Below are positions 49,576-63,705 of a stretch of 64,000 nt of DNA, in pieces. Position 1 is the first letter of the stretch. Each line of letters begins with the position of its first letter. The notes under the pieces were generated by a model. The model saw only the letters and a list, made by a program, of their open reading frames with translations, ran no database searches and was not told where the DNA came from. Location: NCBI GenBank assembly GCA_963693055.1, contig OY843751.1, forward strand, positions 1,718,252-1,782,251, in the 5' to 3' direction. The position numbers and the translations under genes were made by a program. The DNA comes from a bacterium (GTDB lineage Bacteria > Zhuqueibacterota > Zhuqueibacteria > Residuimicrobiales > Krinioviventaceae).

Positions 49576-50751
49576 ATGCGTTACATAATAACAATCTTAA
49601 TCGTGATGGTTTTATTTGCAATATCATATTCAGATACAAACCCACTTTATGTAAAAGCAAACAAAAGTGATTTTGACCAAAATCCTGCTTTGCTTGAACG
49701 TATTATAGATTCACCTCATGGATATTTTAGATTTATTAATATAGAATTTAGTCAATATATTTGCGAGCATTTTAAAGATATCGTTGAACAGGCCCCATCT
49801 TTAAATCTGCATGGTGATGCGCATCTTGAACAATATGCTGTAACTGATCTGGGTAGAGGTTTGACAGACTTTGATGATTCTTCTACCGGCCCCGGAATAA
49901 TTGATTTAATGCGTTTTATAGTTTCTCTCCGCTTAACCTGTTTTCAGCTTGGGTGGGAGGAAAGGACTGAAGAGTTGGTTGACGAGTTTATTTTAGGTTA
50001 TATTAATTCGCTTGATAAGCCTGAATTGGTTCCACAGGAACCGGATATAGCCAAACACATCAGAACAGAATTCAAACACGACAGAGATGCGTATTTTGAT
50101 TGGATTGATTCAATAATGCTCCCCATGCCACAGACAGAAAAAGACTCTATAATTGTTGCTATGGGCTTTTATGTTGAAACATCATTGATGGATAATCCTG
50201 ATTTGAACAGAGATTTTTATGATGTTATCGATATGGGTTATCTCAAAATGGGAATTGGAAGTGCTCTTGATTTAAAATATGTTGTTCGTGTTAATGGCAG
50301 TACAGATGAACCTGATGATGATATTGTGCTCGAAATAAAACAGGTCAGGGATCTTACCGGAATAGATTGTATTCAAACCGGGCAAAAACAGGATCCTTTC
50401 AGAATCCTTGTTGGGCAGTCTCGCATAGCATATGAGCCTTTTCATCATTTGGGTTATTTTCGTTTCAGGAATATGAATTTCTGGGTACATTCATGGGTAG
50501 ACAATTATAAAGAATTATCAATAGATAAAAGCTATACATATCCTTCAGAGTTAAAGCAGGTTATTTATGATGTAGGTGTTCAATTAGGTAAAGGTCATGT
50601 TAAGCATATAGCAGCCCCTTTTGATCTGCATGTTAGACTTGAACAGATTAATCTGGTAGCAAAAAACAAAGAGAGAATTCTACGCGAAAGTAAAATTCTC
50701 TCTCAAAATGTGATAGACGCCTGGAGATTATTTAAAAGATCTATAGAGTGA
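49576..50751 (+). CDS. Hypothetical secreted protein (DUF2252-like)
   Basis: 391 aa with signal peptide; HGDAHLEQY...TDFDDS resembles DUF2252; function unknown. Confidence 0.5.
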   Translation: MRYIITILIVMVLFAISYSDTNPLYVKANKSDFDQNPALLERIIDSPHGYFRFINIEFSQYICEHFKDIVEQAPSLNLHGDAHLEQYAVTDLGRGLTDFDDSSTGPGIIDLMRFIVSLRLTCFQLGWEERTEELVDEFILGYINSLDKPELVPQEPDIAKHIRTEFKHDRDAYFDWIDSIMLPMPQTEKDSIIVAMGFYVETSLMDNPDLNRDFYDVIDMGYLKMGIGSALDLKYVVRVNGSTDEPDDDIVLEIKQVRDLTGIDCIQTGQKQDPFRILVGQSRIAYEPFHHLGYFRFRNMNFWVHSWVDNYKELSIDKSYTYPSELKQVIYDVGVQLGKGHVKHIAAPFDLHVRLEQINLVAKNKERILRESKILSQNVIDAWRLFKRSIE

Positions 50752-51829
50752 AATTTACTCCTCGTTTTTCTGCAATTTCACCCAGTGTTTTAAATACCGT
50801 ATCTTGAATGGGTATACCTTTACTCATATATTCATCGTGCTTGTTATATTCTTTTTCACCATGAATATAAATATGGGGTTCATCTTTTGCTTTAGCCGAG
50901 TTGGTTATTCTTTCAACCAGATCATCCATATTCGTTGTAAATGTATCAAAGTCAACAAAACAGTTAACATCAATTGCCCAAAAAAAGTGACTAACATTTG
51001 CCGGAGCGGGTTTGCCGTCTTTGGGTTTGTTGACCAGGTTTGCATACGCTCCACCCGAAAGCACACCACTAAGCACGTCAACCAAGACTGCCATTCCATA
51101 TCCTTTATAGCCGCTGTATAGTTCACCAGCACCTCCCAGTGGTAGGATCCCACCTCCTAATCTTTGCAATACATTGTTTAAAACTGTTCCGGGATCAGTC
51201 ATAACCAATCCTTCGGTATCAACTGCCCAACCTTCAGGCATTTGCTTGTGTTCGCGATTATAGACTTCCAGCTTTCCCCTGGGAACAACAGATGTTGCCA
51301 TATCCAGAACAAAGGGGCGCTTTTTCTTAGTAGGTACAGCAAAACTGATTGGATTGGTACCAATTACCATCTCTTTTCCAAAAGTAGGTACTACCAGAGG
51401 TGCAGAGTTGGTCATTGAAATACCAATCATATTTTCTTTGAGAATCATCATGCTGTAATAGCCGGCTATACCGTAATGGTTCGAGTTTTTTACAGTAACC
51501 ATGCCAATGCATGATGTTTTGGCTTTTTGAATAGCAAGTTTTGTTGCAAAATAGCCATTGAGTTGCCCTAATCCCGCATTGCCTTCAATTGCAGCTGTTA
51601 CGGGATTTTCTTTGATTATTTCAGGCTTTGCTTGTGGAAAAATGGTACCATTTTCCATTCCGTCAACATATCGTTTCAACCTGGCGACACCGTGTGAAGG
51701 TATGCCACGAAGATCTGACATGACCAGAATATCAGCACAAACCCCCGCGTCCTGACTTGACAGATTAAATGTTGAAAAGATATTTTGAGTAAATTCTTTT
51801 AGATCTTCAAATTTAACCGTCGGCATCAC
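50741..51829 (-). CDS. Ldh_2 family oxidoreductase (malate/L-lactate dehydrogenase type 2)
   Basis: 362 aa; GIPSHGVARL, NSNHYGIAGYY motifs of the Ldh_2 family. Confidence 0.8.
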   Translation of the reverse strand: MMPTVKFEDLKEFTQNIFSTFNLSSQDAGVCADILVMSDLRGIPSHGVARLKRYVDGMENGTIFPQAKPEIIKENPVTAAIEGNAGLGQLNGYFATKLAIQKAKTSCIGMVTVKNSNHYGIAGYYSMMILKENMIGISMTNSAPLVVPTFGKEMVIGTNPISFAVPTKKKRPFVLDMATSVVPRGKLEVYNREHKQMPEGWAVDTEGLVMTDPGTVLNNVLQRLGGGILPLGGAGELYSGYKGYGMAVLVDVLSGVLSGGAYANLVNKPKDGKPAPANVSHFFWAIDVNCFVDFDTFTTNMDDLVERITNSAKAKDEPHIYIHGEKEYNKHDEYMSKGIPIQDTVFKTLGEIAEKRGVNFTL

Positions 51830-51852
51830 TACACCTCATATGTTTGATGAAT

Positions 51853-54555
51853 TTATTTTAACATATCACGCAGAACGGTTTGTAAAATACCTCCCTGACG
51901 GTAATATGTGATTTCAACAGGTGTATCCAGGCGCAGTGTTACAGTGAATGATGTTGTTTTACCGGTCTCGTCTACTGCATTAACATTAATTCCCTGCATG
52001 GGTTGCAAATCGTTTGTCAGTTGAATGGAATACTGTTCATAACCTGTAAGGCCCAAAGATTTTGCCGATTCGTTTTCATTGAATTGTAGTGGGAGAACTC
52101 CCATTCCTACCAGGTTACTCCGATGGATACGTTCAAAACTTTCAGCAATTACTGTTTTTACTCCCAGCAACAAGGTCCCTTTGGCAGCCCAATCTCTTGA
52201 ACTTCCCGTGCCATATTCTTTGCCAGCCAAAACAACCAGGGGAGTATTTTCTTTTTTATACATTTCTGCGGCATCATATATCCACATTTGCTGCTTTTCC
52301 GGCAAGTGTAATGTTACGCCACCTTCAGTGCCCGGAGCCAGGAGGTTTTTTAAACGAATATTGCCAAACGTGCCCCGTACCATAATTCTGTCGTTTCCGC
52401 GTCTTGATCCATAAGAGTTGAAATCTTGAGGTTCTATTCCCATTGATTTAAGGTATGTAGCCGCAGGACTGTCTTCAGGAATGGCCCCGGCAGGAGAAAT
52501 ATGGTCTGTAGTTACAGAATCACCCAATAACGCGAGAACACGTGCATTGTAGATTGAAGAAATGGGTTCGGGATTGGGTTGCATATCGATGAAAAAGGGC
52601 GGTTCCTGAATGTAACTGGAATCTGCCTGCCATTGATATAATGCTGAAGTAGTAACAGGGATATCATTCCATTGCTGGCTATAAGAATTGACATCAGCAT
52701 ACATTTTTTTAAATACTTTAGCGTCAGCAGCTTTTTCTACATAAGAAAGGATTTCTTTTTGTGTTGGCCAAATATCTTTGAGATAAACGGATTCACCAGA
52801 AGACGTTTTACCCAGTGGTTCGTTTTCAAGATCCACATCTACGGTACCGGCAATTGCATAGGCAACAACCAACGGAGGAGATGCAAGATAATTTGCTTTT
52901 GTATAGGGATTAACCCTGCCTTCAAAATTACGGTTACCACTCAAAACAGAAGCTGCAACCAGATCCTGTTCTTTGATAGCGGATGAAACTGCTTCTGGCA
53001 ATGGACCACTGTTGCCTATACAGGTTGCGCAACCATAACCCACCGTGTGAAATCCGAGTTTTTCGAGGTATTCAGTCAGTCCTGCTTTGTCCAGATAATC
53101 TGTAACAACTCTAGAACCAGGAGCCAGGCTGGTTTTAACGTAACCCGGGACTTTTAATCCTTTTTCTACTGCTTTTTTGGCCAAAAGACCTGCCCCCAGC
53201 ATGACTGATGGATTGCTGGTATTTGTACAACTGGTAATGGATGCAATTACCACCGAACCGTGTTTTAATTCATAGCCACCATTCATGTCAAGAGATGCTT
53301 TACGTGTAAGGTCTTTGTCTTCCAGACTAAATCCACGTTTTTCAGCGGGAGCTGTTAAAATATCTTGAAATGTTTTTTTCATATCGGAAAGGTTGATACG
53401 ATCCTGAGGGCGTTTGGGACCGGCAAGACTGGGCACAACATCACCCAGATCCAATTCTATGGTATCTGAGAATTCAGGATCAGGTGTTTGGTCTGTACGG
53501 AATAATCCCTGTTCTTTTGTATAGCGTTCTACAAGATCAACAAGATCATCTGAACGACCAGTGCGACGTAAAAAGTTGAGGCTTTCGTTATCCATTGGGA
53601 AAAATCCCATGGTTGCACCATATTCTGGTGCCATATTGGCTATTGTTGCCCGGTCTGGTAAACTCATGCTGCCTACACCCGGACCATAAAATTCTACAAA
53701 TTTGCCTACAACGCCTTTTTGTCTCAACATTTCTACAACTTTGAGTGCAATATCAGTTGCGGTTGCACCTTGTGGAACAGCACCGGATAGTTTGAATCCT
53801 ACCACTTGCGGTGCGAGCATATAAAGGGGTTGGCCCAGCATAACTGCTTCTGCTTCAATTCCACCAACACCCCAACCCACAATACCCAAGCCGTTGATCA
53901 TGGTTGTATGTGAATCGGTTCCTACAAGACTGTCCGGATAGACCAGTGTTTCAGTTCCTGAATTGTCTGTAAATACGCCTCTGGCAAAATATTCCAGGTT
54001 TACCTGATGAATAATACCAACACCGGGAGGGACAACACCAAATTTTTTGAATGCCTGTTGACCCCATTTGAGGAATTCGTAACGTTCGCGGTTACGTTTA
54101 AATTCTAAATCCATATTAAATACGAGAGAACGTGCTTCGCCAAAACTGTCTATCTGTACAGAATGATCAATTACCAGATCGCAGGGGATGAGGGGTTCGA
54201 TCTTTTGTGGATCTCCGCCCAGTCGCTTCATTGCTGAGCGCATTGCAGCCAGGTCAACCAGAGAGGGTACACCGGTAAAATCCTGCAGAATGACTCGTGC
54301 TGGTTTAAAAGGAACTTCTTTTAAAGAAGGATTAGATGCCTGCCATTGCGCAAGGTTGAGAACATCCTGCTCATTTATTATGGAATTGTCACAATTACGT
54401 AAAACAGATTCCAGTAATATTTTAATACTGAAAGGAAGTTTGGAAACTGCAATACCACTTTTATTTTCCAATGCTTGTAACGCGTACATGTACGCGGTGC
54501 CCCCGGCTGTTTTAATGGGAGATTTTGCGTCAAAAGAATTTTGTTTTAAAGACAT
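51853..54555 (-). CDS. acnA: Aconitate hydratase A
   Basis: 900-aa aconitase with swivel and catalytic domains ([22 protein letters not shown]). Confidence 0.95.
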
Positions 54556-54571
54556 GTTTAATCTTTCATGT

Positions 54572-55240
54572 TTAAGATTCTAACCAATAAACTGTTAATT
54601 TACGTGGGCCATGAGCACCCAAAATTAATATTTTTTCTATATCCGCTGTGCGGCTGGGCCCCGTAATAAAAAGCATATTTTTTTTCTTTTCATCCGGAAT
54701 GATTTCCATGAGTTCAAACATATTGGCAACAAGTTGATCGGGCTTGACAATCACATAGATACTGTCAGGTAAAAAGTGAGGATATAAGCTGGGTATATTG
54801 TCAAGCAATACAACCAGTGAAGCAACATCTGCAATTGCATAATCTACACTTACCAACGATGCCTGTATATTTGCCAGTGTTGATTTTCTGTCCTGTTCAG
54901 GAATGTCAACAGTATTTGTACATTGAATGTCTGATAAATTTGACATTTGTGAAAAAATGCTATCTGTGCCCATAAATGCAATTGTACTATTGTTTCCTGC
55001 AAGCAAGTCTCTATAAAGATGCTCAACCAGTATTTTTTCACTGGAAACAGTTACAAACTCTGCTGAAACTGCTTGCAGTTCTTTTTCAAACTGTTCTTTT
55101 AATCCTTTATCATCCAAGGGTGTTATGGCTGTTAATTTGGATTCAATCTTTTTTTCAACATATTCCGGTTTATCCGGCAAATGGGATGAGGTTTTAACTG
55201 CCTTTTTTATGGCATTCAAGATTTTCTCTCTACTTGGCAT
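54572..55240 (-). CDS. lutC: Lactate utilization protein C (LUD-domain protein)
   Basis: LUD-domain pattern ending [24 protein letters not shown]; start set at internal Met (MPSREK). Confidence 0.75.
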
Positions 55241-55338
55241 TATCGGTTTCCAAATTTTTGTTAATATTCTGAGATTAAACAACGAAAAACACAAAAGGTA
55301 CGAAAAAGACCTTGAGGTTCGATTAATTTATCAAGCAA

Positions 55339-56733
55339 TTATTTATTTTTCATTTCTAAAAAGCGTTTTCTGAACCCTTTATTATCAAATTTGCCAAGGG
55401 CACGTTCTTTGGTATATCCGGGAGCAGGAAATGACTGTCCTTTGGGTAATAACATTTGAATTTTTCCCGGGAACCATGTTGCAAATCTATAAAGTTTTGG
55501 GTGTCTGGCAAGAAATGCCCAAATGTCCATGCCTATTTTTTCAATTTTCATAGAATATCCCTTTTCCACTACATTATTGCGGAGCTTTAACAGATGGTGA
55601 GGGATATTGATTCTAACCGGACAGATTTCGAAACAGGCTCCACATAAACTAGACAGGTAGGGAGAATATTTGCCTTCTTTTTCTCCGAGATATTGGGGAA
55701 TCAAAGTAATACCTATGGGGCCCATATACACCCAACCATACGCGTGGCCACCTATTTGTTGATAAATGGGGCATACGTTAAGGCATGCTCCACACCGAAT
55801 GCAAAAAAGGGATTCGCGCAGTTCAGGATCAGCTAGCATTTTGGACCGGCCATTGTCCAAGAGAACTATATGCATGTCTTCCGGACCTTCTTTTAATTTA
55901 GGAAAAGCAGGGCCGCCAACAATATTTACATAAACAGAAGCTTTTTGTCCTGTTGCGCTGGGACCTAATAGCTTGAGGAAAACGGCCAGATCATTCATAT
56001 TGGGAATGATCTTTTCAATTCCCATAACCGCTATATGTGTTTTGGGGACACCAACAGTCAGACGGGCATTTGCTTCATTTTCAACGACAACTACCGAGCC
56101 AGAATCTGCAACAGCGAAATTTACACCTGAAATGCCAATATCTGCATTGAGAAATTTTTCTCTTAGTGTGTTTCTGGCTATGGTAAGCAATTCGTTAGGA
56201 TCTTCAGTATAATCAATACCTAATTTTTCATGAAAAACCTTGCCAATATCCTGCCGGTTTAAGTGTAATGCCGGAGCTGTAAGGTGAGAAGGAATTTGAC
56301 CCAACAATTGTACAATATATTCACCTAAATCTGTCTCTAGCGTCTCGAGATCATTTTCAATAAGAAAATCATTGAGGTGCAATTCTTCGGTGGTAAGAGA
56401 TTTTGATTTTACAATGGTTTTGGCGTGTTTTTCGCGAGCAATGTTTAATATAATCTGTCGGGCTTCTTTGGCATTTGCTGCCCAATGAACATGAATACCA
56501 TTGGAAATACATTTTTTTTCAAATGTTTCCAGATAGGTATCCAAATGCTCCATAACATCTCGTTTAATGGAGTGGGCTTTGTAACGTAATTCCTCCCAAT
56601 AGGGAATTTGTTCTTTTTTGTCGTTACGTTTTGCTAATGATGTTTGTGTTGCTTTATCTACAGATGCTCTTAATCGACTGTCTAGCAGTGCTTCTTTGAC
56701 ATATGTTTTTGTTTTTGTAGGTGAAAGATTCAT
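55339..56733 (-). CDS. lutB: Lactate utilization protein B (iron-sulfur LUD-domain protein)
   Basis: CIRCGACLNVCPIYQ 4Fe-4S motif plus LUD/DUF162 domain. Confidence 0.85.
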   Translation of the reverse strand: MNLSPTKTKTYVKEALLDSRLRASVDKATQTSLAKRNDKKEQIPYWEELRYKAHSIKRDVMEHLDTYLETFEKKCISNGIHVHWAANAKEARQIILNIAREKHAKTIVKSKSLTTEELHLNDFLIENDLETLETDLGEYIVQLLGQIPSHLTAPALHLNRQDIGKVFHEKLGIDYTEDPNELLTIARNTLREKFLNADIGISGVNFAVADSGSVVVVENEANARLTVGVPKTHIAVMGIEKIIPNMNDLAVFLKLLGPSATGQKASVYVNIVGGPAFPKLKEGPEDMHIVLLDNGRSKMLADPELRESLFCIRCGACLNVCPIYQQIGGHAYGWVYMGPIGITLIPQYLGEKEGKYSPYLSSLCGACFEICPVRINIPHHLLKLRNNVVEKGYSMKIEKIGMDIWAFLARHPKLYRFATWFPGKIQMLLPKGQSFPAPGYTKERALGKFDNKGFRKRFLEMKNK

Positions 56734-56746
56734 AATAAACCTGCTG

Positions 56747-57472
56747 TTATAAATTCATGCTCTGGGCTAAAATATCTGCAATGTGTATTGCTCTGGCTTT
56801 CATATTGTGTTTTCGTAGGTAGCCATCAATATTCATTAAACAACTTGAATCTGTACTTGTCACATAATCTGCACCGCTTTCATCTATATATTTACATTTT
56901 CTTGCAACCATGGAAATTGACATGTCTGCGTATTTATAAGAAAAGGTGCCACCAAATCCACAACAGGTATCTGATTTTTCCATTTCAACAAAATCAATTC
57001 CTTTGATGGATTTTAATAATTTGCGAGGTTGTTCTTTGATGCCTAATTCACGAAGAGCATGACAAGAGTCGTGATATGTTACTTTATGGCTGAATGTGCC
57101 ATCCACTTTATCCATATTCACAACTTTGATTAGAAACTCTGTAAATTCAAAGATTTTGCTACTTAGTTCGTCTCTTGCTGAATGCAATTGTGGATTAATA
57201 TCAAGTTCGTGATAGAATTTCCTTACCATGGTTACACAGGAACCAGAAGGGGAGACAACATATTCTTTGCCCTGAAAGAGTTTAATGAATCTTTCAGCTA
57301 CAGGTACAACTTGTTTACGATATCCGGAATTAAAAGCGGGTTGTCCGCAGCAGGTTTGATCATTTACATATTCTATTTCAGCGCCAATGTGCTCAAGAAC
57401 TTTGACCATAGAAATAGCCGATTCCGGGTATAAATGTTCGGATAAACATGGAATAAAAAGGGCGACTTTCAT
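56747..57472 (-). CDS. lutA: Lactate utilization protein A ((Fe-S)-binding CCG-domain oxidoreductase)
   Basis: Two CCG motifs (DQTCCGQP, DTCCGFGG); start set at MKVALF rather than the ORF-track upstream extension. Confidence 0.85.
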   Translation of the reverse strand: MKVALFIPCLSEHLYPESAISMVKVLEHIGAEIEYVNDQTCCGQPAFNSGYRKQVVPVAERFIKLFQGKEYVVSPSGSCVTMVRKFYHELDINPQLHSARDELSSKIFEFTEFLIKVVNMDKVDGTFSHKVTYHDSCHALRELGIKEQPRKLLKSIKGIDFVEMEKSDTCCGFGGTFSYKYADMSISMVARKCKYIDESGADYVTSTDSSCLMNIDGYLRKHNMKARAIHIADILAQSMNL

Positions 57473-57711
57473 CAGAATTCTCACTTTAAGTCTTGTAATT
57501 GTAATGGTTAAGAACTTGGTAGAAAAGAACCTATAATTTAAAATAATTAATTTTCTCTGAAAATCAATTAAATAATGTAAATTTGTTTCCTGTTGTATGA
57601 TTTTGATGTGTACTGCAAACAGGTTGAGATAAATCAACTCATACGCAACCCAGGGGAAATATGAGCCCCGGTATATATTATATAAAATGACTATTGATCA
57701 TTTTAAAAATC

Positions 57712-57743
57712 ACATCCGGCCAGCGTATATTCTGACCGGATGT
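57712..57743 (-). terminator. Terminator-like hairpin downstream of the isocitrate dehydrogenase-family gene
   Basis: acatccggccag-cgtatatt-ctgaccggatgt (one mismatch), followed on the minus strand by a T-run. Confidence 0.5.
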
Positions 57744-57761
57744 TTGTAAGCTTTATTTTAA

Positions 57762-58958
57762 TCAAGCAGTATATTGTTTGTATTTTTCGTCTAGATCAGG
57801 CAGTTGAACTGTTTCCAGGATGTAATCGCAGAATTCACGTCCGGTTACGCCATTGTCACGACCAGTAATGATCATTTTTTTCTCAAATTGCTGGCATATT
57901 TCAAGAGCTTTGCCAAGTTGATCAGCTTTTTCAATGTATCCGATATGTTCAAGCATCATTGCTGCGGCACGGATCAGGCTTGAAGGATCTGCATATTTCC
58001 CGCGTCCTTCTTTAATCATACGAGGAGCTGAACCATGAATTGCTTCAAACATTGCATAACGTTTACCAATATTAGCGCTTCCCGCGGTACCAACGCCACC
58101 CTGGAATTCAGCAGCTTCGTCAGTTAAAATGTCACCATAGAGGTTGGGAAGAACCATAACCTTAAACTGGGTGCGGCGTTTGGGGTCAACCAGCTTGGCG
58201 GTCATAATGTCAATATACCAACCTTCCCATTTAACATTGGGATAATCTTTAGCTACGCGCTCAGCAGTTTCAAGGAAAAGACCGTCAGTTGTTTTTACAA
58301 CATTGGCTTTGGTTACAACAGTAACGTCATTCAGGCCTGTTTTATGTGCGTAATCAAATGCCATACGAATGATACGCTCTGCACCTTGTTTGGAAATAAC
58401 CTTAAAGTCCATTGCAAGGTCATCAGTTACCATAAGGCCTTTACTACCTAGCACATAGGCACCTTCAGTGTTTTCACGAAAGAAAGTCCAGTTCAAGCCT
58501 TCTTTTGGAACTTTGACCGGGCGAACATTGGCAAACAGGTCCAGTTCACGACGCATAGCAACATTTGCGCTTTCAATGTTGGGGTAGGGCCCGCCTTTTT
58601 CCGGAGTTGTTGTTGGCGCTTTAAGGATGACGTGACATGCTTTGAGCTCTTTCAGAACATCATCTGGAATTGCTTTCATATGCTCAACACGATTTTCAAT
58701 GGTCAAACCTTCAATGGGTGTGAATTCAAGTTTGCCTTTGGCAATTTCATCTTTGAGAAGAATCTCTAAAAGGCGTTGGGTTTCCTGAGAAATGATGGGA
58801 CCTATGCCATCTCCCCAGCAGAAACCGATTTTGATTGGTGATAATTTACTATAATCAATCCAGTCTTCAGCTTGTTTCATCTTTTCTACGCGTTCAAGCT
58901 GTTCCGCAATCAGTGTTCCTAGATGTTCTTTTGCTTTTTCAATTGCTTTTTCACTCAT
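57762..58958 (-). CDS. Isocitrate/isopropylmalate dehydrogenase family protein, likely isocitrate dehydrogenase
   Basis: 398 aa; NLYGDILTDEAA and IHGSAP motifs; same strand as aconitase and the citrate synthase candidate. Confidence 0.75.
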   Translation of the reverse strand: MSEKAIEKAKEHLGTLIAEQLERVEKMKQAEDWIDYSKLSPIKIGFCWGDGIGPIISQETQRLLEILLKDEIAKGKLEFTPIEGLTIENRVEHMKAIPDDVLKELKACHVILKAPTTTPEKGGPYPNIESANVAMRRELDLFANVRPVKVPKEGLNWTFFRENTEGAYVLGSKGLMVTDDLAMDFKVISKQGAERIIRMAFDYAHKTGLNDVTVVTKANVVKTTDGLFLETAERVAKDYPNVKWEGWYIDIMTAKLVDPKRRTQFKVMVLPNLYGDILTDEAAEFQGGVGTAGSANIGKRYAMFEAIHGSAPRMIKEGRGKYADPSSLIRAAAMMLEHIGYIEKADQLGKALEICQQFEKKMIITGRDNGVTGREFCDYILETVQLPDLDEKYKQYTA

Positions 58959-58990
58959 AATAACTCCTGTGTTGATTGGGGTCCCATGTT

Positions 58991-59503
58991 TTAATAAACA
59001 TTTTGGTCATCGGAAAAATCTTTGCGATCTTTTTTATATATATAAAAACGCTCTTTTAAGGTATTTAATTCATTTTGAATATCCAAAGTTTTAGAAACAT
59101 AATATTTGGCAAAGTTGTCTCTTGCGACAGCAAATGCCCTGTTACATTCCGTTAATAATTCCACCAGTTCTTCAGATAAAGGATAGCAAGTGGTAAGCAT
59201 ACTCCAGAATTCATTCTCAAATATACGGATGGCTTTTTGTACTTCTTCCAATGTATAGCCTTCATTTGAGCGTTTGTTTGCAAGATTTTCCATATATTGA
59301 ATTAATGGTTTGTCATCACAATCGGCAATTACTTTGAGCATTATATCAAGAAATTCTTCTTCGCGTTCCTGATGACGTTCAAAGTCAATAATCTCATAAT
59401 GTGATTCTGACATTTTTTGCAGTTTATTACAAATTCTGTTTATCAGATCATCGCGGTGTTCTTTGATGACACGTTTGAGATTACTGTTTGTGCAGTGTGT
59501 CAT
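58991..59503 (-). CDS. Hypothetical protein
   Basis: 170 aa, no recognisable motif; 23-bp overlap with the upstream gene end suggests co-transcription. Confidence 0.45.
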   Translation of the reverse strand: MTHCTNSNLKRVIKEHRDDLINRICNKLQKMSESHYEIIDFERHQEREEEFLDIMLKVIADCDDKPLIQYMENLANKRSNEGYTLEEVQKAIRIFENEFWSMLTTCYPLSEELVELLTECNRAFAVARDNFAKYYVSKTLDIQNELNTLKERFYIYKKDRKDFSDDQNVY

Positions 59504-61373
59504 GCTTTTTGATTCTCCTGTTTCTCCGTTTCAGTTGCTCTTCAATTCTGCCAATGATACGCTGCGAATATTTACTGTATTCTTTGCCCATGCTTTCAGA
59601 CTCTTTTTCCAATCCTTTTTCTATTGTAGTTATAAAGTCTTCAATGCTTTTTGCGGAAACGGGTTTGGGCTTGTCGGCCCATTTAAAAAGCATTGCTTCT
59701 ATGGGTTCAAAATAATCCGGTTTTGGTAAAGTGTTACAAGATTTAAATGGATATGGATTTAATTCTTGCTGAAATCCCTTTAACGCCATGATTAAAGGCT
59801 GATAATCATATTCATAAAACAATCTGGAAAATTGGTATTCTACAACAGGAGTCCATTTGTTATCATCTGGTACTGTATGGTGTTTGTTTAATCGCGAAAA
59901 ATTGAGCCCGGTTTCTTCGTGATCAATTTCCCGTTGATGAATACGCATTTCCCTCAAAATACCATTCCTATCTTCACGCAAGTCACCACCAAGTAAAAGG
60001 AGACAGAGGAAATAATCCGGATTATCAATTTCTTTAAATTCTTGATTTGGAGGTAACTGTATACTGAGATGCAGGCTGTGCGGTTTGATGTCTAAGTATC
60101 TAACCGCCAAATCAATCATTTGGGAAAGTACCCAGGGGTCCTGGGTTGCGGGTTTGGATACATCTCCCAGTAATTTATACCTTCCAAAAGCTAGTTCAAG
60201 AAAGCCACGGGTTCTGACGTTTGATGATGTCAGGAATCCATGATCATCCACATGTGCACCAAGTTTCCACCCTCTGCGCATGATATCAAATTTATAGAAA
60301 TAATAAAAAGAGTCGTAAAGCGGATCTTCACCTTCTTTGGAATTTACAGCACGATAACCGATATTGGAAAATTCCAGTTCTGCTCCCAATGGTAGGGAGC
60401 CAATGTGACGATTCTTTTTAAGCCATTTTACTATTTCGTCTGCTTTGGTGGGGTCATACAATTCTTCTGCAATGATTATTGCGGCAGCAGCATAGTCTGT
60501 ATATAAAATATCAGGATTGTATCTGTCTACTTCCAGGTGAGAAATAGCACTGGATAAATGTTGCTTTTGATTGACCAGTAGCTTTAGCGCCATTGTAGCA
60601 GAAAGGGTGTGGATGTAAAACTCGTCTGCAACATTTACCTGGCCCCTGTAATCATTCCTGAATTTTTCTTCAAGTTGATTAAATATCATGAAATTGAGTG
60701 CAAGCTTCATGTAATTGTCTGCATACTTTATTGCTTTTCTGTCGGTCTTTAACCAATTCAAGCGGGGAATGCTAGCTTTTTCTATTTCATGTTTGATAAT
60801 AAATGCAGGAATACCTGTGTCTTGAAAATATTGGCGTAAAATGCTATGCACTTCTTCAGAAAGCAATTCTCTTGTTACTTTGAGCGGAAGAGATTCTCGA
60901 TCATAATTGAGCAGCATGTCTGCTTTTTGTTCAACATAGCGGTTTACATTGCTTTCAACAAATTCTTCAATACGGTCCCGTTCCTGGAATCCTTTGTCGA
61001 TATATGGCTTTATAGATCTGGGCTTGCCAATATATACAAAAGAATCAATTACTTTATCATTAACTTGAATTTGGGCAACTTTGCGTTTATACAAACTGCC
61101 TTCGGCCTCGTAAGCATCGAGTTTTTCTAGTATATCTGGTGTTACATTGTACAGAACCCTGCCCTCAATGCTGTATCCTTTCCAGGGAAGCGCAAAGGTA
61201 AAGCTGTTTTCCGGTTGAACACGACGGTGATTAATTAACAAACCTTTTTCACTCAACAGTTTGGTACCCGTCAGCAATTCCAGATAATAATCATTATTCA
61301 GAGAACCATAAACAAATACTTTGTCTATGGTTTTCCAATCAATCTTTTCTGTTTTCTTATCTTTTGCGCTCAC
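59481..61373 (-). CDS. Uncharacterised protein with N-terminal gamma-glutamyl cyclotransferase-like (AIG2/GGCT) domain and a C-terminal region of about 500 aa of unknown function
   Basis: 630 aa; VFVYGSLNNDYYL...EGRVL...LDAYEAEGSLYKR GGCT-like start; start codon overlaps the stop of the upstream HMGL-family gene by 4 bp. Confidence 0.55.
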   Translation of the reverse strand: MSAKDKKTEKIDWKTIDKVFVYGSLNNDYYLELLTGTKLLSEKGLLINHRRVQPENSFTFALPWKGYSIEGRVLYNVTPDILEKLDAYEAEGSLYKRKVAQIQVNDKVIDSFVYIGKPRSIKPYIDKGFQERDRIEEFVESNVNRYVEQKADMLLNYDRESLPLKVTRELLSEEVHSILRQYFQDTGIPAFIIKHEIEKASIPRLNWLKTDRKAIKYADNYMKLALNFMIFNQLEEKFRNDYRGQVNVADEFYIHTLSATMALKLLVNQKQHLSSAISHLEVDRYNPDILYTDYAAAAIIIAEELYDPTKADEIVKWLKKNRHIGSLPLGAELEFSNIGYRAVNSKEGEDPLYDSFYYFYKFDIMRRGWKLGAHVDDHGFLTSSNVRTRGFLELAFGRYKLLGDVSKPATQDPWVLSQMIDLAVRYLDIKPHSLHLSIQLPPNQEFKEIDNPDYFLCLLLLGGDLREDRNGILREMRIHQREIDHEETGLNFSRLNKHHTVPDDNKWTPVVEYQFSRLFYEYDYQPLIMALKGFQQELNPYPFKSCNTLPKPDYFEPIEAMLFKWADKPKPVSAKSIEDFITTIEKGLEKESESMGKEYSKYSQRIIGRIEEQLKRRNRRIKKHDTLHKQ

Positions 61374-62737
61374 TCTACCTTGTCTGCGAAATAGAGTTCA
61401 AACTGCTTCATCATTTCCTCAGGAGAAATTGAAGTTACCCGACCATTTTCATATTGCTCTTCAACCCATTCAAATATCTTTGCAACCTGAGGATTTCTCT
61501 TGTCTACAGGAGGTAAACCACGTTTTTTAAGTTCACGGTTTACCCAAAAACCTACGCCTGCTATTCCGGAACGATTGGTAAGATTTACACCAATTGGCCG
61601 ATTTAATACTTTATCCGTATCAAAAATGTTATAAATTTCTTCATTTTTAATCACACCATCGGCGTGAATTCCTGCCATTGTAACATTAAAGCGTTCACCT
61701 ACAAAGGGATAGTTGTTGGGTATTACAGTACCTATCTCTTTGAGGTATTCTGCAATTTCAGTGATAGCGGTAAGATCCATTCCGTTAGTGCCGCCTGTTA
61801 GAGAGGCATATTCTACTGCCAGTGCTTCTACCGGAGAGTTACCAGTCCTTTCACCGAATCCAAGAATTGTACCATTTACTCCTGAAACACCGGACAACCA
61901 TGCCGTGACTGAATTTGCATGAACTTTATGAAAGTCATTGTGTCCATGCCATTCGAGGTTCTCTGAGGTGATGCCTACTTCACGCTGTAAAAAGTATGCA
62001 ATCTTGCGAATAGAGCGCGGAAGTGCTACACCGGGATAGGGGAGTCCGTAACCCATTGTATCGCATAAGCGGATTTTTATCTTTAATCCCGACTTTGCTG
62101 AAAAGTTCATTAATTCTTCTGCAAAGGGAACAACCGTACCCCAGAAATCGGCACGGGTAATATCTTCAAAATGGCATCTGATGGCTTCCAGACCTGCATC
62201 AGCGGCTGCCTGAACAACACCCATAAAAGCATCCAATACCTGGCGACGTGTTTTTTTAAATTTCATAAAAATGTGATAATCGGATATAGATGTCAACATA
62301 CCGGTTTCTTTAATGCCCACACTTTTCACAAGTTCAAAATCAGCAGGATTAGCGCGAATCCACGAGGTAACCTGTGGAAATTCCAACCCTTTGTTGCGAA
62401 CTTCTTCAAGAATTTCTCTATCCATTTCCGAATAAATAAAGAACTCGGATTGTCGAATTACACCTTTGGGTCCCGAAAGTTTGCTGATAAGATCAAACAG
62501 CTTTGATACTTGCTCGGGTGTATAGGGGGGACGCGCCTGTTGTCCGTCTCTAAAAGTTGTGTCCGTAATCCAGATATCTTTAGCAGGCTTGGCGTCTACT
62601 ATTTCACCGTCAAATACGGTTTTGGGAATCTCGGAATAGGGAAATATATCACGCATCAAGTTTGGTTCTTGAACATCGATCAAAGGATGTTTTTGTTGTT
62701 TTGATAAAATTCTCCAGTCAGAATTCACTTCAGCCAT
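61370..62737 (-). CDS. HMGL-like (homocitrate/isopropylmalate synthase family) enzyme; Re-citrate synthase candidate
   Basis: 455 aa; ITDTTFRDGQQ, HGHNDFH and GFGERTGN motifs of the DRE-TIM metallolyase family; genomic context with aconitase and an IDH-family gene. Confidence 0.7.
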   Translation of the reverse strand: MAEVNSDWRILSKQQKHPLIDVQEPNLMRDIFPYSEIPKTVFDGEIVDAKPAKDIWITDTTFRDGQQARPPYTPEQVSKLFDLISKLSGPKGVIRQSEFFIYSEMDREILEEVRNKGLEFPQVTSWIRANPADFELVKSVGIKETGMLTSISDYHIFMKFKKTRRQVLDAFMGVVQAAADAGLEAIRCHFEDITRADFWGTVVPFAEELMNFSAKSGLKIKIRLCDTMGYGLPYPGVALPRSIRKIAYFLQREVGITSENLEWHGHNDFHKVHANSVTAWLSGVSGVNGTILGFGERTGNSPVEALAVEYASLTGGTNGMDLTAITEIAEYLKEIGTVIPNNYPFVGERFNVTMAGIHADGVIKNEEIYNIFDTDKVLNRPIGVNLTNRSGIAGVGFWVNRELKKRGLPPVDKRNPQVAKIFEWVEEQYENGRVTSISPEEMMKQFELYFADKVE

Positions 62738-62850
62738 GATCCCTCCTTGTTTGTATAGTTAAAAAATTTTTACTAAATATACGAAATCCCTATTATTGCC
62801 AGTGGATGGCAATTAAAGCCAGGGATTGTCAGAATTGTAAAATTTGAGAG

Positions 62851-63555
62851 TTACGGTTCTTGAACTTCGGTCAGATATTGTAACGCATCAATAATTTTGC
62901 TATTATTGGGGCTGAGTTCGAGACCATGTTTGTATGCGTTAATCGCTTCAGGAATACGTCTTAGACGGTAATAGACGTTTCCAAGATGATAGTAAACACG
63001 TGAATCTTCACTACCAATCTTTAATAACTCTTCAAGATGTTCCAAAGCGCAGTGGTAGCATTGTTCTTCAATGCAGGATAATGCAGCATGATAATGTGCC
63101 ATGGGTGAATCTGCTTTTTTCTCAAGCAATGTTTCAAAAGCCTTGCGGGCTTTGTGATATTTGCCAAGATGCCAGTATGTCATGCCCAACCAGTAATATG
63201 CCATTAGCATTTCAGGAGCTAATTCAATTACTTTTTTTAGAGCATTTTTTGCATCCCAGAGCTTTAGTTGGCGATAATGAGAAACACCTAGATAGTAATA
63301 TGCGTAGGGGAGTTCCGGATTAACTATAATGGCTTTTTCAAAGACTTCAATTGCGGATGAAATCTTGCCTCGTAAATAATAGCCATTTCCCAGCATTAAT
63401 AAAGATCGTATGTCTTGTTCATCAGTATTGACTGTTTGTTCAAGCTGTTTCATTAATTCATCCAACTGGGATGAATTCATCATGTCCATCGATTCCGGCA
63501 GATTAATATCAGATGTAGTCATATCGTTATGCTCCCATATATCTTTATAATCCAC
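62851..63555 (-). CDS. Tetratricopeptide repeat protein
   Basis: Several 34-residue TPR-like repeats (AxxYYxLGxxYxxxGxxxxA). Confidence 0.75.
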   Translation of the reverse strand: MDYKDIWEHNDMTTSDINLPESMDMMNSSQLDELMKQLEQTVNTDEQDIRSLLMLGNGYYLRGKISSAIEVFEKAIIVNPELPYAYYYLGVSHYRQLKLWDAKNALKKVIELAPEMLMAYYWLGMTYWHLGKYHKARKAFETLLEKKADSPMAHYHAALSCIEEQCYHCALEHLEELLKIGSEDSRVYYHLGNVYYRLRRIPEAINAYKHGLELSPNNSKIIDALQYLTEVQEP

Positions 63556-63705
63556 TGCTTAATATAATAATGTGTTTCTGAATTAATGTCAAGTACTATT
63601 TGTGTTGAAAACAAAATCGATAGTTTTATATTGATTTTTAACAGTCAAATGAATACATTTATTGCCAAAATAGTTTAATTTTTTTAAAAATTTACAGGAT
63701 TATTT

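Follow-up and report, generated by a model that had tools for sequence, protein, structure and literature searches.

A Re-citrate synthase, a 630-aa fusion protein that joins a cyclotransferase domain to a predicted ligase domain (hereafter GG630), a stand-alone sensor globin and a TPR protein stay together across several candidate phyla despite changes in gene order, and we consider it likely that GG630 is functionally linked to the synthase. The locus studied here, from an uncultured KSB1-like bacterium, lies in a window of 64,000 nucleotides (the whole stretch of DNA that was analysed), with the following features.

63564..63592, minus strand: promoter-like site, TTGACA-17-TATTAT (11/12), 9 nt upstream of the TPR start codon; consensus match only
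62851..63555, minus strand: TPR protein, 234 aa, about five TPR repeats, acidic N-terminus (Pfam TPR_2/TPR_1/TPR_11)
61370..62737, minus strand: Re-citrate synthase of the CKL_0973/SYN_02536 type, 455 aa, HMGL-like (Pfam HMGL-like, 103 bits; identity and tree)
59481..61373, minus strand: GG630, 630 aa, with GGACT cyclotransferase, helical domain, predicted carboxylate-amine ligase-fold domain and C-terminal helices
60999..61325, minus strand: GGACT/AIG2-like domain of GG630, residues about 17-125, with YGSL motif (Y22-L25) and Glu89 as equivalent of the catalytic Glu
60408..60998, minus strand: all-helical middle domain of GG630, residues about 126-322 (DSSP on the predicted model)
59724..60407, minus strand: predicted carboxylate-amine ligase (glutamine synthetase) fold domain of GG630, residues about 323-550, with GhExE as G330-A-E332-L-E334
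58991..59503, minus strand: stand-alone protein of sensor-globin fold, 170 aa, RsbR_N/RsbRD_N-like
57762..58958, minus strand: isocitrate/isopropylmalate dehydrogenase (IDH) family protein, 398 aa (PF00180, Iso_dh, 222 bits)
57712..57743, minus strand: terminator-like hairpin, 12-bp stem with 7 GC pairs and a T-run, 19 nt past the IDH stop; pattern match only
54572..57472, minus strand: lutA, lutB and lutC, lactate-utilisation Fe-S proteins (Pfam and NCBIfam)
51853..54555, minus strand: aconitate hydratase AcnA, 900 aa (NF006757, 1395 bits, above cut-off)
50741..51829, minus strand: Ldh_2-family malate/L-lactate/sulfolactate dehydrogenase, 362 aa (PF02615, 417 bits)

The synthase, GG630, the 170-aa protein and the IDH-family gene follow one another as four reading frames (62737..61370, 61373..59481, 59503..58991 and 58958..57762), and are themselves followed by lutABC, acnA and the Ldh_2 dehydrogenase gene; Pfam assignments thus bear out the initial annotation, which had placed an HMGL-family synthase on the same strand as aconitase and an IDH-family gene. 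The numbers of homologues (418 for GG630 at E<=1e-3, 72 for the 170-aa protein) and a syntenic copy, 97-99% identical, on a 390-kb public MAG contig indicate that these frames are genuine genes rather than chance. The synthase gene has an ATG start with an AAGGAGG Shine-Dalgarno sequence, GG630 starts with GTG, and the GTGA common to this start and the synthase stop makes up the 4-bp overlap proposed earlier. The overlap between GG630 and the 170-aa gene is likewise real, the ATG of the latter (with AGGAGAA upstream) lying 23 nt inside the former, and the IDH gene begins 32 nt past the 170-aa stop. We think that the unit should be extended upstream to take in the TPR gene (63555..62851), and that the row from this gene to the IDH gene probably forms a single transcript. 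The promoter-like site in front of it has the top score within 50500-64000, a region in which the total of such sites is not above the shuffled expectation. The idea of one operon with aconitase fares less well: the strand is shared, but lutABC and a probable terminator-like hairpin (57743..57712) stand between the IDH gene and acnA, so that acnA may sit in a second transcription unit, probably together with lutABC. A second promoter-like site is found at 57706..57677, and a further terminator-like hairpin (pattern match) follows the Ldh_2 gene at 50704..50669. The true start of lutA is probably at 57472, giving 241 aa, the length called in a 97%-identical contig (L001).

The synthase was compared with reference Re-citrate synthases taken from Table S1 of PMC12016533. 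It is 51% identical over its full length to the purified enzyme SYN_02536 of S. aciditrophicus and 48% to that of C. kluyveri, CKL_0973 (48-54% full-length identity to proven and putative Re-citrate synthases), and groups with these two in 100% of 200 neighbour-joining bootstrap replicates. Identity to NifV, LeuA, CimA and the second Re-citrate synthase type (HM1_2993/Dehalococcoides) is only 25-31%, the protein falls far under all NCBIfam cut-offs for LeuA, NifV and CimA, and close homologues carry the JGI name "citrate (Re)-synthase". Judged by identity and tree, it is a CKL_0973-type Re-citrate synthase, in the biochemically proven Clostridium kluyveri/Syntrophus clade, and the Re-type assignment suggested initially stands up to phylogeny. 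The best NCBIfam matches of the 398-aa dehydrogenase are IDH models, every one below cut-off; in KSB1-type loci an IDH-family gene is kept after the module and the Ldh_2 gene after acnA. The genes of the row, with lutABC, acnA and the Ldh_2 gene, form an oxidative branch leading from malate or oxaloacetate and acetyl-CoA to 2-oxoglutarate, in which the Ldh_2 dehydrogenase is a possible supplier of oxaloacetate.

The N-terminal gamma-glutamyl cyclotransferase-like domain recognised initially in GG630 is confirmed by a Pfam GGACT match at residues 19-118 (54.6 bits, cut-off 22.8). The YGSL motif is conserved, and so is the Glu that aligns with the catalytic region of mouse GGACT; the domain is apparently catalytically intact. 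The rest of the protein had been described as a large uncharacterised region. It is true that the middle domain has no significant Pfam match and that the domain behind it has neither a Pfam nor a PDB sequence match, but the predicted model (pLDDT 89.6, pTM 0.90) points to a previously unannotated ligase domain there, of the fold common to PafA/Dop, glutamate-cysteine ligase (GCL) and glutamine synthetase (GS), with the GhExE Mg/ATP signature. With this model Foldseek retrieved PafA and Dop as sole ligases (prob 0.85 and 0.95, 360-390 aligned columns). GhExE is distinctive of carboxylate-amine ligases (PMC2588565); it is invariant in GG630 down to 34% identity, as are about 20 further charged or His residues of the ligase core, and this, with the conserved Glu and YGSL of the GGACT domain, is more typical of working enzymes. 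The assignment is made from predicted fold and motifs only: hhalign of the domain to E. coli YbdK and GshA did not succeed, and the strand-4 [HD]x[NH] and strand-6 Ex[RK]xxD motifs are absent in canonical form. In relatives without a fused GGACT domain, a separate GGACT gene adjoins in 3/5 contexts examined; such a pairing, kept even as split genes, argues for coupled chemistry. We are highly confident of the anatomy and of the fold assignments.

The second protein previously left as hypothetical, of 170 aa, is a stand-alone sensor globin, probably non-haem. The TPR protein, in which no signal peptide was seen, adds a fourth conserved member to the module, not included in the initial annotation: orthologues (49-98% identity) lie directly upstream of the synthase in 17 close (KSB1-type) loci, and in a Zixibacteria/Coatesbacteria clade a TPR protein of the same size, 29-33% identical, lies directly downstream of the globin, so that the gene is retained although its position shifts.

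Loci were grouped by GG630 identity into close (at least 50%), intermediate (36.5-50%) and distant (mostly Lentisphaeria). The synthase gene directly precedes that of GG630 in all 28 close loci and in 10 of the 16 intermediate ones, and the loci with this pair span KSB1, Moduliflexus/KSB3, Zixibacteria, Coatesbacteria, Acidobacteriota and Omnitrophota. The expected co-occurrence therefore holds in these groups but not beyond: synthase, globin and TPR protein are all absent near GG630 in the other 6/16 intermediate loci and in every distant one (0/27), a distribution that the initial annotation did not cover. Re-citrate synthase thus cannot be the universal target of GG630. The globin gene follows in 29 of the 46 close and intermediate loci having at least 0.6 kb downstream, and is missing from about one third of KSB1-type loci; the start-stop overlap with GG630 is kept in 32/35 loci. 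Moduliflexus loci keep the triad of synthase, GG630 and globin without IDH or aconitase, and an Omnitrophota locus (L058) has its module genes in divergent arrangement. Among loci without the synthase, GG630 lies beside an ArgA-like GNAT gene and murI in 23 Lentisphaeria loci, and beside argC, GlnRS or malic enzyme in others.

As to what GG630 does, we lean towards a gamma-glutamyl ligase/cyclotransferase chemistry, and our favoured reading, held tentatively, is that gamma-glutamyl groups are reversibly attached to a protein amine in a putative complex with the Re-citrate synthase. The ligase domain would activate a gamma-carboxylate with ATP (most likely from glutamate, with which the branch ends) and join it to an amine of a protein within a synthase/TPR/globin complex; the GGACT domain would take the gamma-glutamyl group off again as 5-oxoproline. 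As a "writer/eraser" in one protein, GG630 would work much as PafA/Dop do, though with no Pup, and would resemble bifunctional regulators such as AceK or GlnE by analogy only. It would adjust the synthase according to glutamate/2-oxoglutarate status or to a redox cue sensed by the globin. Protein-level hints in favour of this reading are the retained TPR gene, the conserved GG630/globin overlap and the dCache sensor fused to other synthases of the clade; the glutamate-related neighbours of GG630 in loci without the synthase also fit. A candidate site is residue 162 of the synthase, beside the conserved HIF motif, which is Lys in module-linked enzymes and Met in the 4 stand-alone enzymes compared (several further residues also differ), a contrast with only four OCR-derived outgroup sequences that could be purely phylogenetic. 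The C-terminal residue of the synthase is not conserved among homologues, so the synthase is no Pup-like donor.

Several observations weigh against protein modification. To our knowledge, the substrates of characterised GGACT, GGCT and BtrG enzymes are small molecules rather than lysines in proteins. Neither a proteasome gene nor a small ORF resembling Pup was found near the locus, and Iyer et al. (PMC2588565) assigned an analogous ligase and Aig2 neighbourhood, also with no tag ORF, to small-molecule peptide metabolism. With a ligase and the enzyme that reverses its work in one protein, a futile cycle would result if the two were not regulated reciprocally; GG630 often occurs without the other three proteins, the globin is not always kept, and the ligase call has the limits given above. 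We therefore regard small-molecule gamma-glutamyl or 5-oxoproline metabolism as nearly as likely, the linkage then reflecting shared regulation of 2-oxoglutarate/glutamate supply rather than physical action. GG630 might run a self-contained gamma-glutamyl cycle (glutamate, ATP and an amine or amino acid to a gamma-glutamyl compound, then to 5-oxoproline and the amine), or be a new enzyme, either an ATP-dependent 5-oxoprolinase or one of gamma-glutamyl salvage, that feeds damaged or stored derivatives of glutamate back into the pool. Its folds match families acting on the gamma-carboxyl of glutamate, which all characterised relatives known to us (GS, GCL, PafA, GGCT, GGACT) handle, solo GG630 lies beside glutamate-related housekeeping genes, and phage gene sets with amidoligase and GGCT offer a precedent (PMC10945688). 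Such a role, however, leaves unexplained why TPR protein and globin are retained with the synthase and GG630 through reordering, why the GG630/globin overlap is conserved and why the triad stays with the synthase when IDH and aconitase are elsewhere; Foldseek prefers PafA and Dop, which modify proteins, to GCL and GS, and on free glutamate the fusion would burn ATP to make 5-oxoproline.

It is less probable that GG630, globin and TPR protein form a non-catalytic or partly catalytic assembly, a complex that stabilises the oxygen-sensitive, metal-dependent synthase or controls it allosterically, the ligase-like domain sensing ATP or glutamate as a ligand and making no covalent bond. TPR and globin partners are what one expects of protein-protein scaffolds and sensors, spacing and translational coupling are tight and conserved, the standard strand-4 and strand-6 motifs are not seen, and a dCache sensor is fused to other synthases of the clade (as C-terminal extension in SYN_02536, and in the proteins P0234-P0240), which makes sensor control of Re-citrate synthase recurrent. 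Against this stand the invariant residues of both domains, the survival of the ligase-GGACT pairing after gene splitting, and the C. kluyveri and S. aciditrophicus enzymes, which are active by themselves (literature cited in PMC12016533). We find it improbable that the module-linked synthase condenses a different 2-oxo acid with acetyl-CoA as part of a specialised pathway, with GG630 first adding and later removing a gamma-glutamyl protecting group after the BtrJ/BtrG logic of butirosin biosynthesis. HMGL-like synthases do switch substrate easily, protection and deprotection by a ligase and a GGACT-family enzyme is a known strategy in that pathway, and the residue differences from the stand-alone enzymes, position 162 among them, would fit; yet identity and bootstrap tie the synthase to Re-citrate synthases, its conserved neighbours (AcnA above the equivalog cut-off, the IDH-family protein and the malate-type Ldh_2) make up exactly the route from citrate to 2-oxoglutarate, and the loci share no further conserved biosynthetic genes. 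Least probable of all is historical accident, with GG630, globin and TPR protein as unrelated passengers inherited with the synthase in a few related lineages. Most loci do belong to just a few related candidate phyla, known from MAGs only, and GG630 is also found without the synthase, but the association survives three gene orders and a divergent arrangement, holds down to 37-40% identity for GG630 and 55-65% for the synthase in groups labelled as different phyla, and keeps its operon-tight spacing, the two identities dropping in parallel across loci.

In our opinion, the linkage of a Re-citrate synthase with a ligase-cyclotransferase fusion, a globin and a TPR protein is worth experiment: whichever chemistry GG630 performs, this conserved accessory set probably couples citrate synthesis to glutamate status.

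The genes discussed here lie in a tightly packed row on the minus strand, and a second block of genes follows on the same strand.

Genes of the row and of the region downstream of it (coordinates, strand, description)
63555..62851, minus strand: open reading frame for a TPR protein
62737..61370, minus strand: open reading frame for an HMGL-like synthase of 455 aa (PF00682)
61373..59481, minus strand: open reading frame with a GTG start for a 630-aa protein, called GG630 below
59503..58991, minus strand: open reading frame with an ATG start for a 170-aa protein (globin)
58958..57762, minus strand: open reading frame for an Iso_dh-family protein of 398 aa, called IDH below
54572-57637, minus strand: lutA, lutB and lutC, lactate-utilisation Fe-S proteins, between the IDH and aconitase genes
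50741-51829, minus strand: Ldh_2-family dehydrogenase, after acnA
49576-50751, plus strand: DUF2252 protein gene, convergent with the Ldh_2 gene, the 3' ends overlapping by 11 nt

Within the five genes from TPR to IDH the largest gap is about 110 nt. The stop of the synthase gene and the GTG start of the GG630 gene have a GTGA in common, the 170-aa gene has its ATG 23 nt inside the GG630 gene, preceded by an AGGAGAA motif, and the IDH gene starts 32 nt past the stop of the 170-aa gene, again with an AGGAG ahead; the synthase gene itself has a strong AAGGAGG ribosome-binding site. Reading frames, strand and both overlaps were thus correctly described in the initial annotation. A pattern scan places the top promoter-like site of the 13.5-kb region (TTGACA-17-TATTAT) just upstream of the TPR gene, and a strong terminator-like hairpin 19 nt past the IDH stop; such sites are pattern matches only, in a total number not above shuffled expectation. 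Where these sites lie suggests that the five genes from TPR to IDH form one unit, and the TPR gene, which the initial annotation had left outside its operon, probably belongs to this first transcription unit. Downstream come lutA, lutB and lutC, then the gene for AcnA (1395 bits, above the NCBIfam cut-off) and that for the Ldh_2-family dehydrogenase, a block with promoter-like and terminator-like sites of its own. Aconitase and IDH do lie on the strand of the synthase, as had been noted, but the aconitase gene is probably in a second transcription unit and not in the synthase operon.

Several side observations belong here. Several KSB1-type loci likewise have lutABC between IDH and aconitase; the mechanically called lutA frame (296 aa, TTG start) is probably over-extended, a 97%-identical contig giving 241 aa with a start near 57472. 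An Ldh_2-family dehydrogenase also follows acnA in most KSB1-type loci; the best match of the window's protein is to L-sulfolactate dehydrogenase, below the cut-off, and it may be a malate dehydrogenase that gives the synthase its oxaloacetate. The IDH-family protein, which has an N-terminal extension of about 40 residues, does not reach any of the NCBIfam cut-offs for IDH, IPMDH or homoisocitrate dehydrogenase (at best 263 bits against 509). In all of the 64-kb window, no match to an Rfam family attains the gathering score, and with zero matches there we rejected a structured RNA or riboswitch in the operon leader. The GC content of the window is about 35-44%. Its nearest public sequence is a 390-kb MAG contig (CAXXMD010000001.1, protein identity 97-99%), and its nearest named relatives are MAGs of candidate division KSB1.

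In many anaerobes the oxidative TCA branch begins with Re-citrate synthase, an enzyme that is routinely given the wrong annotation; several homologues 75-80% identical to the synthase of the window carry the JGI name 'citrate (Re)-synthase' and the NCBI name 2-isopropylmalate synthase. The window's enzyme matches PF00682 (HMGL-like) with 103 bits against a cut-off of 29, and falls far below the NCBIfam cut-offs for NifV, LeuA, CimA and homocitrate synthase (for example 139 bits against 463 for nifV); among PDB sequences it matches IPMS, CMS and HCS, with no closer solved structure. Sequences of characterised and putative Re-citrate synthases are printed in Table S1 of PMC12016533, where the S. 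aciditrophicus SYN_02536 and C. kluyveri CKL_0973 enzymes are termed 'known and isolated'. By BLASTP, full-length identity is 51% to SYN_02536 and 48% to CKL_0973, with 54% to the putative C. thermocellum enzyme, values slightly underestimated because the reference sequences are the OCR text of a PDF supplement; it drops to 25-31% for NifV, LeuA, CimA and the second type of Re-citrate synthase (HM1_2993, Teth514_0415 and Dehalococcoides CAI83711). A neighbour-joining tree (200 replicates) places the synthase within the CKL_0973/SYN_02536 clade with a bootstrap of 100. Its context, kept in related loci, is that of the oxidative TCA branch, with an IDH-family gene in the row and AcnA and Ldh_2 downstream. 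On these sequence comparisons, the synthase is a Re-citrate synthase (Re-CS below) of the CKL_0973/SYN_02536 type, a new member of a known family; the proposal of a Re-type enzyme is thereby borne out, since it clusters with the characterised ones and not with LeuA, NifV or CimA.

The window's Re-CS is like the CKL_0973 and SYN_02536 enzymes (EC 2.3.3.3) in its HMGL-like fold, its clade and its aconitase and IDH neighbours. Unlike theirs, its row holds genes for a GGACT-ligase fusion, for a sensor globin and for a TPR protein, as in several candidate phyla, whereas the Re-CS of Syntrophus and Armatimonadota instead have a fused C-terminal extension of dCache type. In SYN_02536 this extension has about 170 residues; in the Armatimonadota homologues (P0234-P0240, 599-613 aa) precomputed matches to dCache_1 (PF02743) and PF22673 follow the HMGL domain. 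For a citrate synthase, fusion to a sensor domain is unusual, and we found no discussion of it in the literature. Near the conserved SDYH active-site region, residue 162 (motif HIFMKFK-K-TRRQ) is Lys in 117 of the 125 aligned homologues and in all but one of the 41 module-linked synthases, and Met in four reference enzymes (SYN_02536, CKL_0973, CAC0970 and that of C. thermocellum) as well as in the homologue P0204. Lys162 also occurs in the dCache-fused Armatimonadota synthases, and at least some of those genomes carry an unlinked GG630. With an outgroup of four, Lys162 is a weak candidate for a module-specific residue or modification site.

In Pfam, GG630 has only an N-terminal GGACT match (PF06094, 54.6 bits, residues 19-118, above the cut-off), and in NCBIfam none at all. 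At E<=1e-3 its family numbers 418 proteins, almost all of 600-660 aa, and an alignment of 40 of them (34-70% identity) shows many invariant charged or His residues in the un-annotated part (E332, E334, D376, H378, E393, H432, H435, E475, R477, E482, H498, E512 and R517), a set that reads as the pattern of an enzyme. The AlphaFold2 model built on this alignment (pLDDT 89.6, pTM 0.90) has a beta-rich part (about 17-125), an all-helical part (about 126-322), a mixed beta/alpha part (about 323-550) and two long C-terminal helices. The first part has the GGCT fold in the model in addition to its PF06094 profile match. In its motif V21-Y22-G23-S24-L25, G23 is invariant and V21, Y22 and L25 occur in at least 90% of the sequences; D86 and E89 are invariant in the 40 homologues, and D86-x-x-E89 ('DeYE') aligns with the 'DDFE' of mouse GGACT (1vkb). 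Oakley et al. are said to have identified the Glu of this DDFE-type motif as the catalytic residue. From its motifs, the GGACT domain looks catalytically competent.

It is the third part of the model that would give the protein a second activity. Its structure matches (scores in brackets) include the depupylase Dop (14.3), the glutamate-cysteine ligases of E. coli and Francisella (13.2 and 12.9), the YbdK-type protein 1tt4 (12.8) and GshAB (12.6), followed, from about 11 down to 6.5, by plant and yeast GCL, many glutamine synthetases and gamma-glutamyl-methylamide synthetase. The carboxylate-amine ligase superfamily has as its signature a GhExE (Ex[EH]) on core strand 1 (PMC2588565); as further marks, strands 2 and 3 bear acidic residues, strand 4 an [HD]x[NH] and strand 6 an Ex[RK]xxD, and there are arginine fingers as well. 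In the predicted model, the domain is a six-stranded, saddle-shaped GS fold, with G330-A331-E332-L333-E334 on its first strand (329-335), of which G330, E332 and E334 are invariant. The invariant D376 and E393 lie on strands 373-376 and 391-396, a strand correspondence made by order only; H432-S-L-H435 (strand 431-439) and E512...R517 (strand 508-515) are variants of the strand-4 and strand-6 motifs, none of them canonical, and strand 473-475 has the invariant R477 and the near-invariant R474 on it or close by.

At the sequence level the picture is one of consistent absence. The ligase core has zero Pfam matches at E<=10, PF12224 included, and the helical domain just two, at chance level; a profile of the GG630 family matched PDB sequences in its GGACT part alone; and hhalign of the ligase domain gave a probability of 15%, in a misplaced segment, with E. 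coli YbdK and of 0.2% with GshA. A ligase-core profile run against 1.84 billion representatives found 82 proteins, which are the family itself alone, and none of the ten that were scanned has a Pfam domain. By Pfam, NCBIfam, PDB profile and hhalign, the domain is thus not in GCS2, Pup_ligase, Gln-synt_C or Amidoligase_2. We therefore assign it to the superfamily of carboxylate-amine/ammonia ligases at the level of predicted fold and motif, where the assignment stays because links to known families are absent at the sequence level, and consider it a new small family within that known superfamily, failing membership of each described family.

The 82 relatives include a subfamily of 420-490 aa with the helical and ligase parts only, without GGACT and without any Pfam domain. 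A separate GGACT gene adjoins the ligase-only gene in three of the five contexts inspected.

Ligase-only genes with a separate GGACT gene adjoining (homologous locus, coordinates, arrangement)
L093, 2282-4409: GGACT gene convergent with the ligase gene
L095, 7001-8786: GGACT gene overlapping the stop of the ligase gene by 8 nt
L099, 6001-7788, and L100, 98-1885: GGACT gene 10 nt downstream of the ligase gene

Fusion in one lineage together with neighbouring genes in another is a classic sign of joint function, and since ligase and cyclotransferase are fused in some cases and adjacent in others, they form a functional pair. Two further neighbours may be recorded. The ligase-only gene of L093 also adjoins an acetyl-CoA synthetase and a DUF294 (GlnD/GlnE-like) nucleotidyltransferase. 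An ADP-ribosylglycohydrolase (DraG-like) gene adjoins the ligase-only/GGACT pair in the unrelated locus L099 (4530-5594) and the module in Moduliflexus-type loci (L006 9416-10504, L007 9472-10548 and L031 at about 10599-11660); DraG-like proteins are another kind of reverser of protein modification, and this could be coincidence.

The other protein that had been listed as unknown, of 170 aa, resolves into a globin. Its Pfam matches are sub-threshold (Rsbr_N 23.9 bits against 27, RsbRD_N 18.4 against 24.3, and a HisK-N-like globin), many members of its family (72 proteins of 160-180 aa) have precomputed PF14361 matches, and its AlphaFold2 model (pLDDT 90.1) is a five-helix bundle with the sensor-type globin fold. 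H35, Y36, R47, R78, G82, Y83, E87, W100 and F153 are invariant in the family. Helix 85-106 has no invariant His at the expected proximal haem position, and the sole invariant His, H35, sits in the loop after helix 1; for want of that proximal His, a non-haem sensor globin is the likelier reading. No STAS or output domain is present, the chain ending after the globin fold. In being a sensor domain without an output domain it is like the pXO2-61 sporulation inhibitor of B. anthracis, and its weak RsbR_N and RsbRD_N profile matches recall the N-terminal domains of RsbR/MtR in stressosomes. Unlike RsbR, however, it comes without STAS and with no kinase or stressosome genes nearby, and its invariant residues define a 72-member family separate from pXO2-61 and RsbR/MtR. 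It represents a new family of stand-alone sensor globins. Profile searches and structure prediction have thus given both proteins of formerly unassigned function an identity: ligase fold plus GGACT for the one, sensor globin for the other.

To see how firmly these genes are linked, we scanned 185,579 species, each represented by one genome. A GG630 relative turned up in 486 of these genomes; the best 80 loci were fetched and compared by tblastn with the window proteins, grouped by the identity of their GG630 to that of the window.

Presence of Re-CS and globin genes by identity of GG630 to the window protein
GG630 at least 50% (KSB1, Moduliflexus/KSB3, Calditrichota-labelled and other MAGs): Re-CS directly upstream on the same strand in 28/28 loci with enough upstream DNA; globin in 19/30 loci with at least 0.6 kb downstream
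GG630 36.5-50% (Zixibacteria, Coatesbacteria, Acidobacteriota, Omnitrophota and others): Re-CS in 10/16 (one divergent, L058); globin in 10/16 loci with at least 0.6 kb downstream
GG630 below 36.5% (Lentisphaeria/Victivallales): Re-CS in 0/27; globin in 0/27

The expected co-occurrence with the synthase therefore holds at GG630 identities of at least 36.5% and fails in the distant group. The six loci without Re-CS at 36.5-50% are Auribacterota-type, one Lentisphaeria MAG and further MAGs, and Re-CS is also missing from an Armatimonadia (L054) and a Poribacteria (L059) locus; separate look-ups in metagenome assemblies gave the same pictures as the genome scan. In Moduliflexus loci Re-CS, GG630 and globin stay together with IDH and aconitase elsewhere and with unrelated flanks. 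In 17 loci of the close group (KSB1-type, 49-98% identity) the gene directly upstream of Re-CS is the TPR gene, and in the Zixibacteria/Coatesbacteria clade a TPR gene of the same size (29-33% identity) is directly downstream of the globin gene; the TPR protein (in the window at 62851-63555, in L008 at 9406-10140) is thus a fourth conserved member of the module, with a clade-dependent position. In 32 of 35 loci the globin gene starts before the GG630 stop (median -20 nt), and the median spacing from Re-CS to GG630 is +30 nt. The Moduliflexus triad, the shifting but retained TPR gene and the tight gene spacing argue for a functional linkage, and an accidental one seems to us scarcely credible.

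In 23 of the Lentisphaeria/Victivallales loci (within L062-L092) the row is accA, a small ArgA-like GNAT (NF005840, above cut-off), GG630 and murI (glutamate racemase), with no Re-CS, globin or TPR gene within 8 kb. Other neighbours where Re-CS is missing, as anecdotal cases, are argC, glutaminyl-tRNA synthetase, malic enzyme, a fumarase-like gene and acetyl-CoA synthetase. Glutamate and acetyl-CoA metabolism is thus a recurring theme among the neighbours, although the Lentisphaeria synteny may reflect shared ancestry. As an aside, a protein of 250-266 aa with an HAD-like DxDGV near its N-terminus and no Pfam match on record is conserved in Moduliflexus-type loci, divergent from Re-CS (L006 4367-5167 and L007 4453-5208, both minus strand; also L033 and L043).

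Among known systems, the Pup ligase PafA and the depupylase Dop have the GhExE signature on the first core strand in common with GG630, and the chemistry proposed for it is theirs, in that they use ATP to join the gamma-carboxylate of a glutamate to an amine and have a dedicated activity for its removal; GG630 has, however, no detectable sequence similarity to them, and its strand-4 and strand-6 motifs are non-canonical. Nor are there Pup-like ORF, Mpa or proteasome genes near the module: a small disordered Pup-like protein ending in GGQ/GGE was not found in the tightly packed gene row, which has no room for one, and removal would be by a cyclotransferase, as 5-oxoproline, rather than by a PafA paralogue. 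Other ideas that we rejected are that Re-CS is a Pup-like donor through a C-terminal Glu (present in the window's enzyme, but among 41 module-linked enzymes the final residue is not conserved), that the globin or TPR protein is a tag of the Pup kind (neither has a conserved C-terminus), and that the module is an anti-phage defence system (PADLOC gave only trivial TPR noise, and the sole PHROG match is the GGCT domain). The gamma-glutamyl cycle of GshA or YbdK/GCS2 with GGCT/GGACT/ChaC uses the same two folds and the two chemistries predicted here, ATP-driven synthesis of a gamma-glutamyl amide and its cleavage to 5-oxoproline; in contrast to it, GG630 fuses both, with a 200-residue helical domain in between and a ligase domain outside all Pfam families, glutathione genes are missing from the loci, and the context is Re-CS and the TCA branch. 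A tagless pairing of an uncharacterised GS-fold ligase with AIG2/GGCT is known from the Amidoligase_2-type neighbourhoods of Iyer, Burroughs and Aravind (2008, PMC2588565), and the same pairing, again without a Pup-like tag, is found in phage gene sets of amidoligase, GATase and GGCT. GG630 differs in that its parts are fused rather than neighbouring, in having no PF12224 match, in its link to Re-CS, globin and TPR, and in its occurrence in KSB1, Zixibacteria, Lentisphaeria and related groups. AceK (IDH kinase/phosphatase) and GlnE (GS adenylyltransferase/removase), each a single polypeptide that marks a branch-point enzyme in central carbon or nitrogen metabolism covalently and also takes the mark off, are a functional analogy only to what is proposed for GG630, with no homology.

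What can be said on mechanism builds on this anatomy, on the fold assignments, on the ligase-GGACT pairing and on the linkage of Re-CS, GG630, globin and TPR, and is inferential. To our knowledge, each characterised carboxylate-amine ligase uses ATP to activate a carboxylate (in most cases glutamate's gamma-carboxyl) for linkage to an amine or ammonia, and each characterised GGCT-fold enzyme cleaves a gamma-glutamyl amide, the glutamyl moiety being cyclised to 5-oxoproline. Given this established chemistry of both families, GG630 therefore most likely makes and unmakes a gamma-glutamyl amide. The branch that starts with Re-CS has glutamate as its end product. As to the acceptor, we lean, tentatively and with a good deal of doubt, towards a protein amine in a Re-CS complex. 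In favour of it, the partners are non-enzymatic (a TPR scaffold and a sensor globin), translational coupling is conserved, the linkage is specific to Re-CS and not to the pathway, the structural preference is for PafA/Dop, and sensor domains are repeatedly fused to other Re-CS of the clade (dCache-type; SYN_02536 and P0234-P0240). Non-enzymatic partners might also speak of a sensor or assembly complex held together without covalent chemistry, which we consider improbable for a protein with this ligase-cyclotransferase pair.

Against a protein amine, a tag ORF is missing, known GGACT-type enzymes act on small molecules, many genomes have GG630 without Re-CS, a fused writer and eraser would need reciprocal regulation, and the comparable ligase and Aig2 neighbourhood was read as small-molecule peptide metabolism (Iyer et al., PMC2588565). 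The main rival, about as probable as the protein amine and doubtful in its turn, gives GG630 a small-molecule role, in a gamma-glutamyl cycle or as a new ATP-dependent 5-oxoprolinase or gamma-glutamyl salvage enzyme. That the synthase uses another substrate, in a pathway with gamma-glutamyl protection, seems very improbable for an enzyme placed so firmly among the Re-citrate synthases. Returning to the protein amine, its most specific form, which we regard as unlikely though worth spelling out, is that GG630 both writes and erases a bacterial post-translational modification of a new kind, on a lysine of Re-CS, with Lys162 as the candidate. The ligase domain would attach free glutamate through its gamma-carboxyl to this lysine, with ATP, by a PafA-like chemistry without Pup; the GGACT domain would take it off again as 5-oxoproline; and the sensor globin, on the TPR scaffold, would set the balance of both activities. 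Glutamate, with which the branch opened by Re-CS ends, would thus covalently throttle the first enzyme of that branch.

We found no description in the literature of a GGACT-ligase fusion, of its link to Re-citrate synthase or of any Re-citrate synthase regulator, and nothing beyond PMC2588565 that connects GGCT/GGACT with Re-citrate synthase or PafA-like ligases. The window adds a clear member from the KSB1 lineage to the Re-citrate synthases, and two proteins without assigned function have become part of a defined, conserved four-protein module around this enzyme. The module reveals a carboxylate-amine ligase family that Pfam and NCBIfam do not see (82 representatives of 1.84 billion, with relatives in 486 species genomes), and which in several candidate phyla is locked to a citrate synthase together with a sensor and a scaffold. 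Should the small-molecule reading be true, GG630 would be a new glutamate/5-oxoproline enzyme in lineages without cultured members; should protein modification be true, it would be a Pup-independent relative of pupylation controlling central metabolism, and the first known control mechanism of a Re-citrate synthase.
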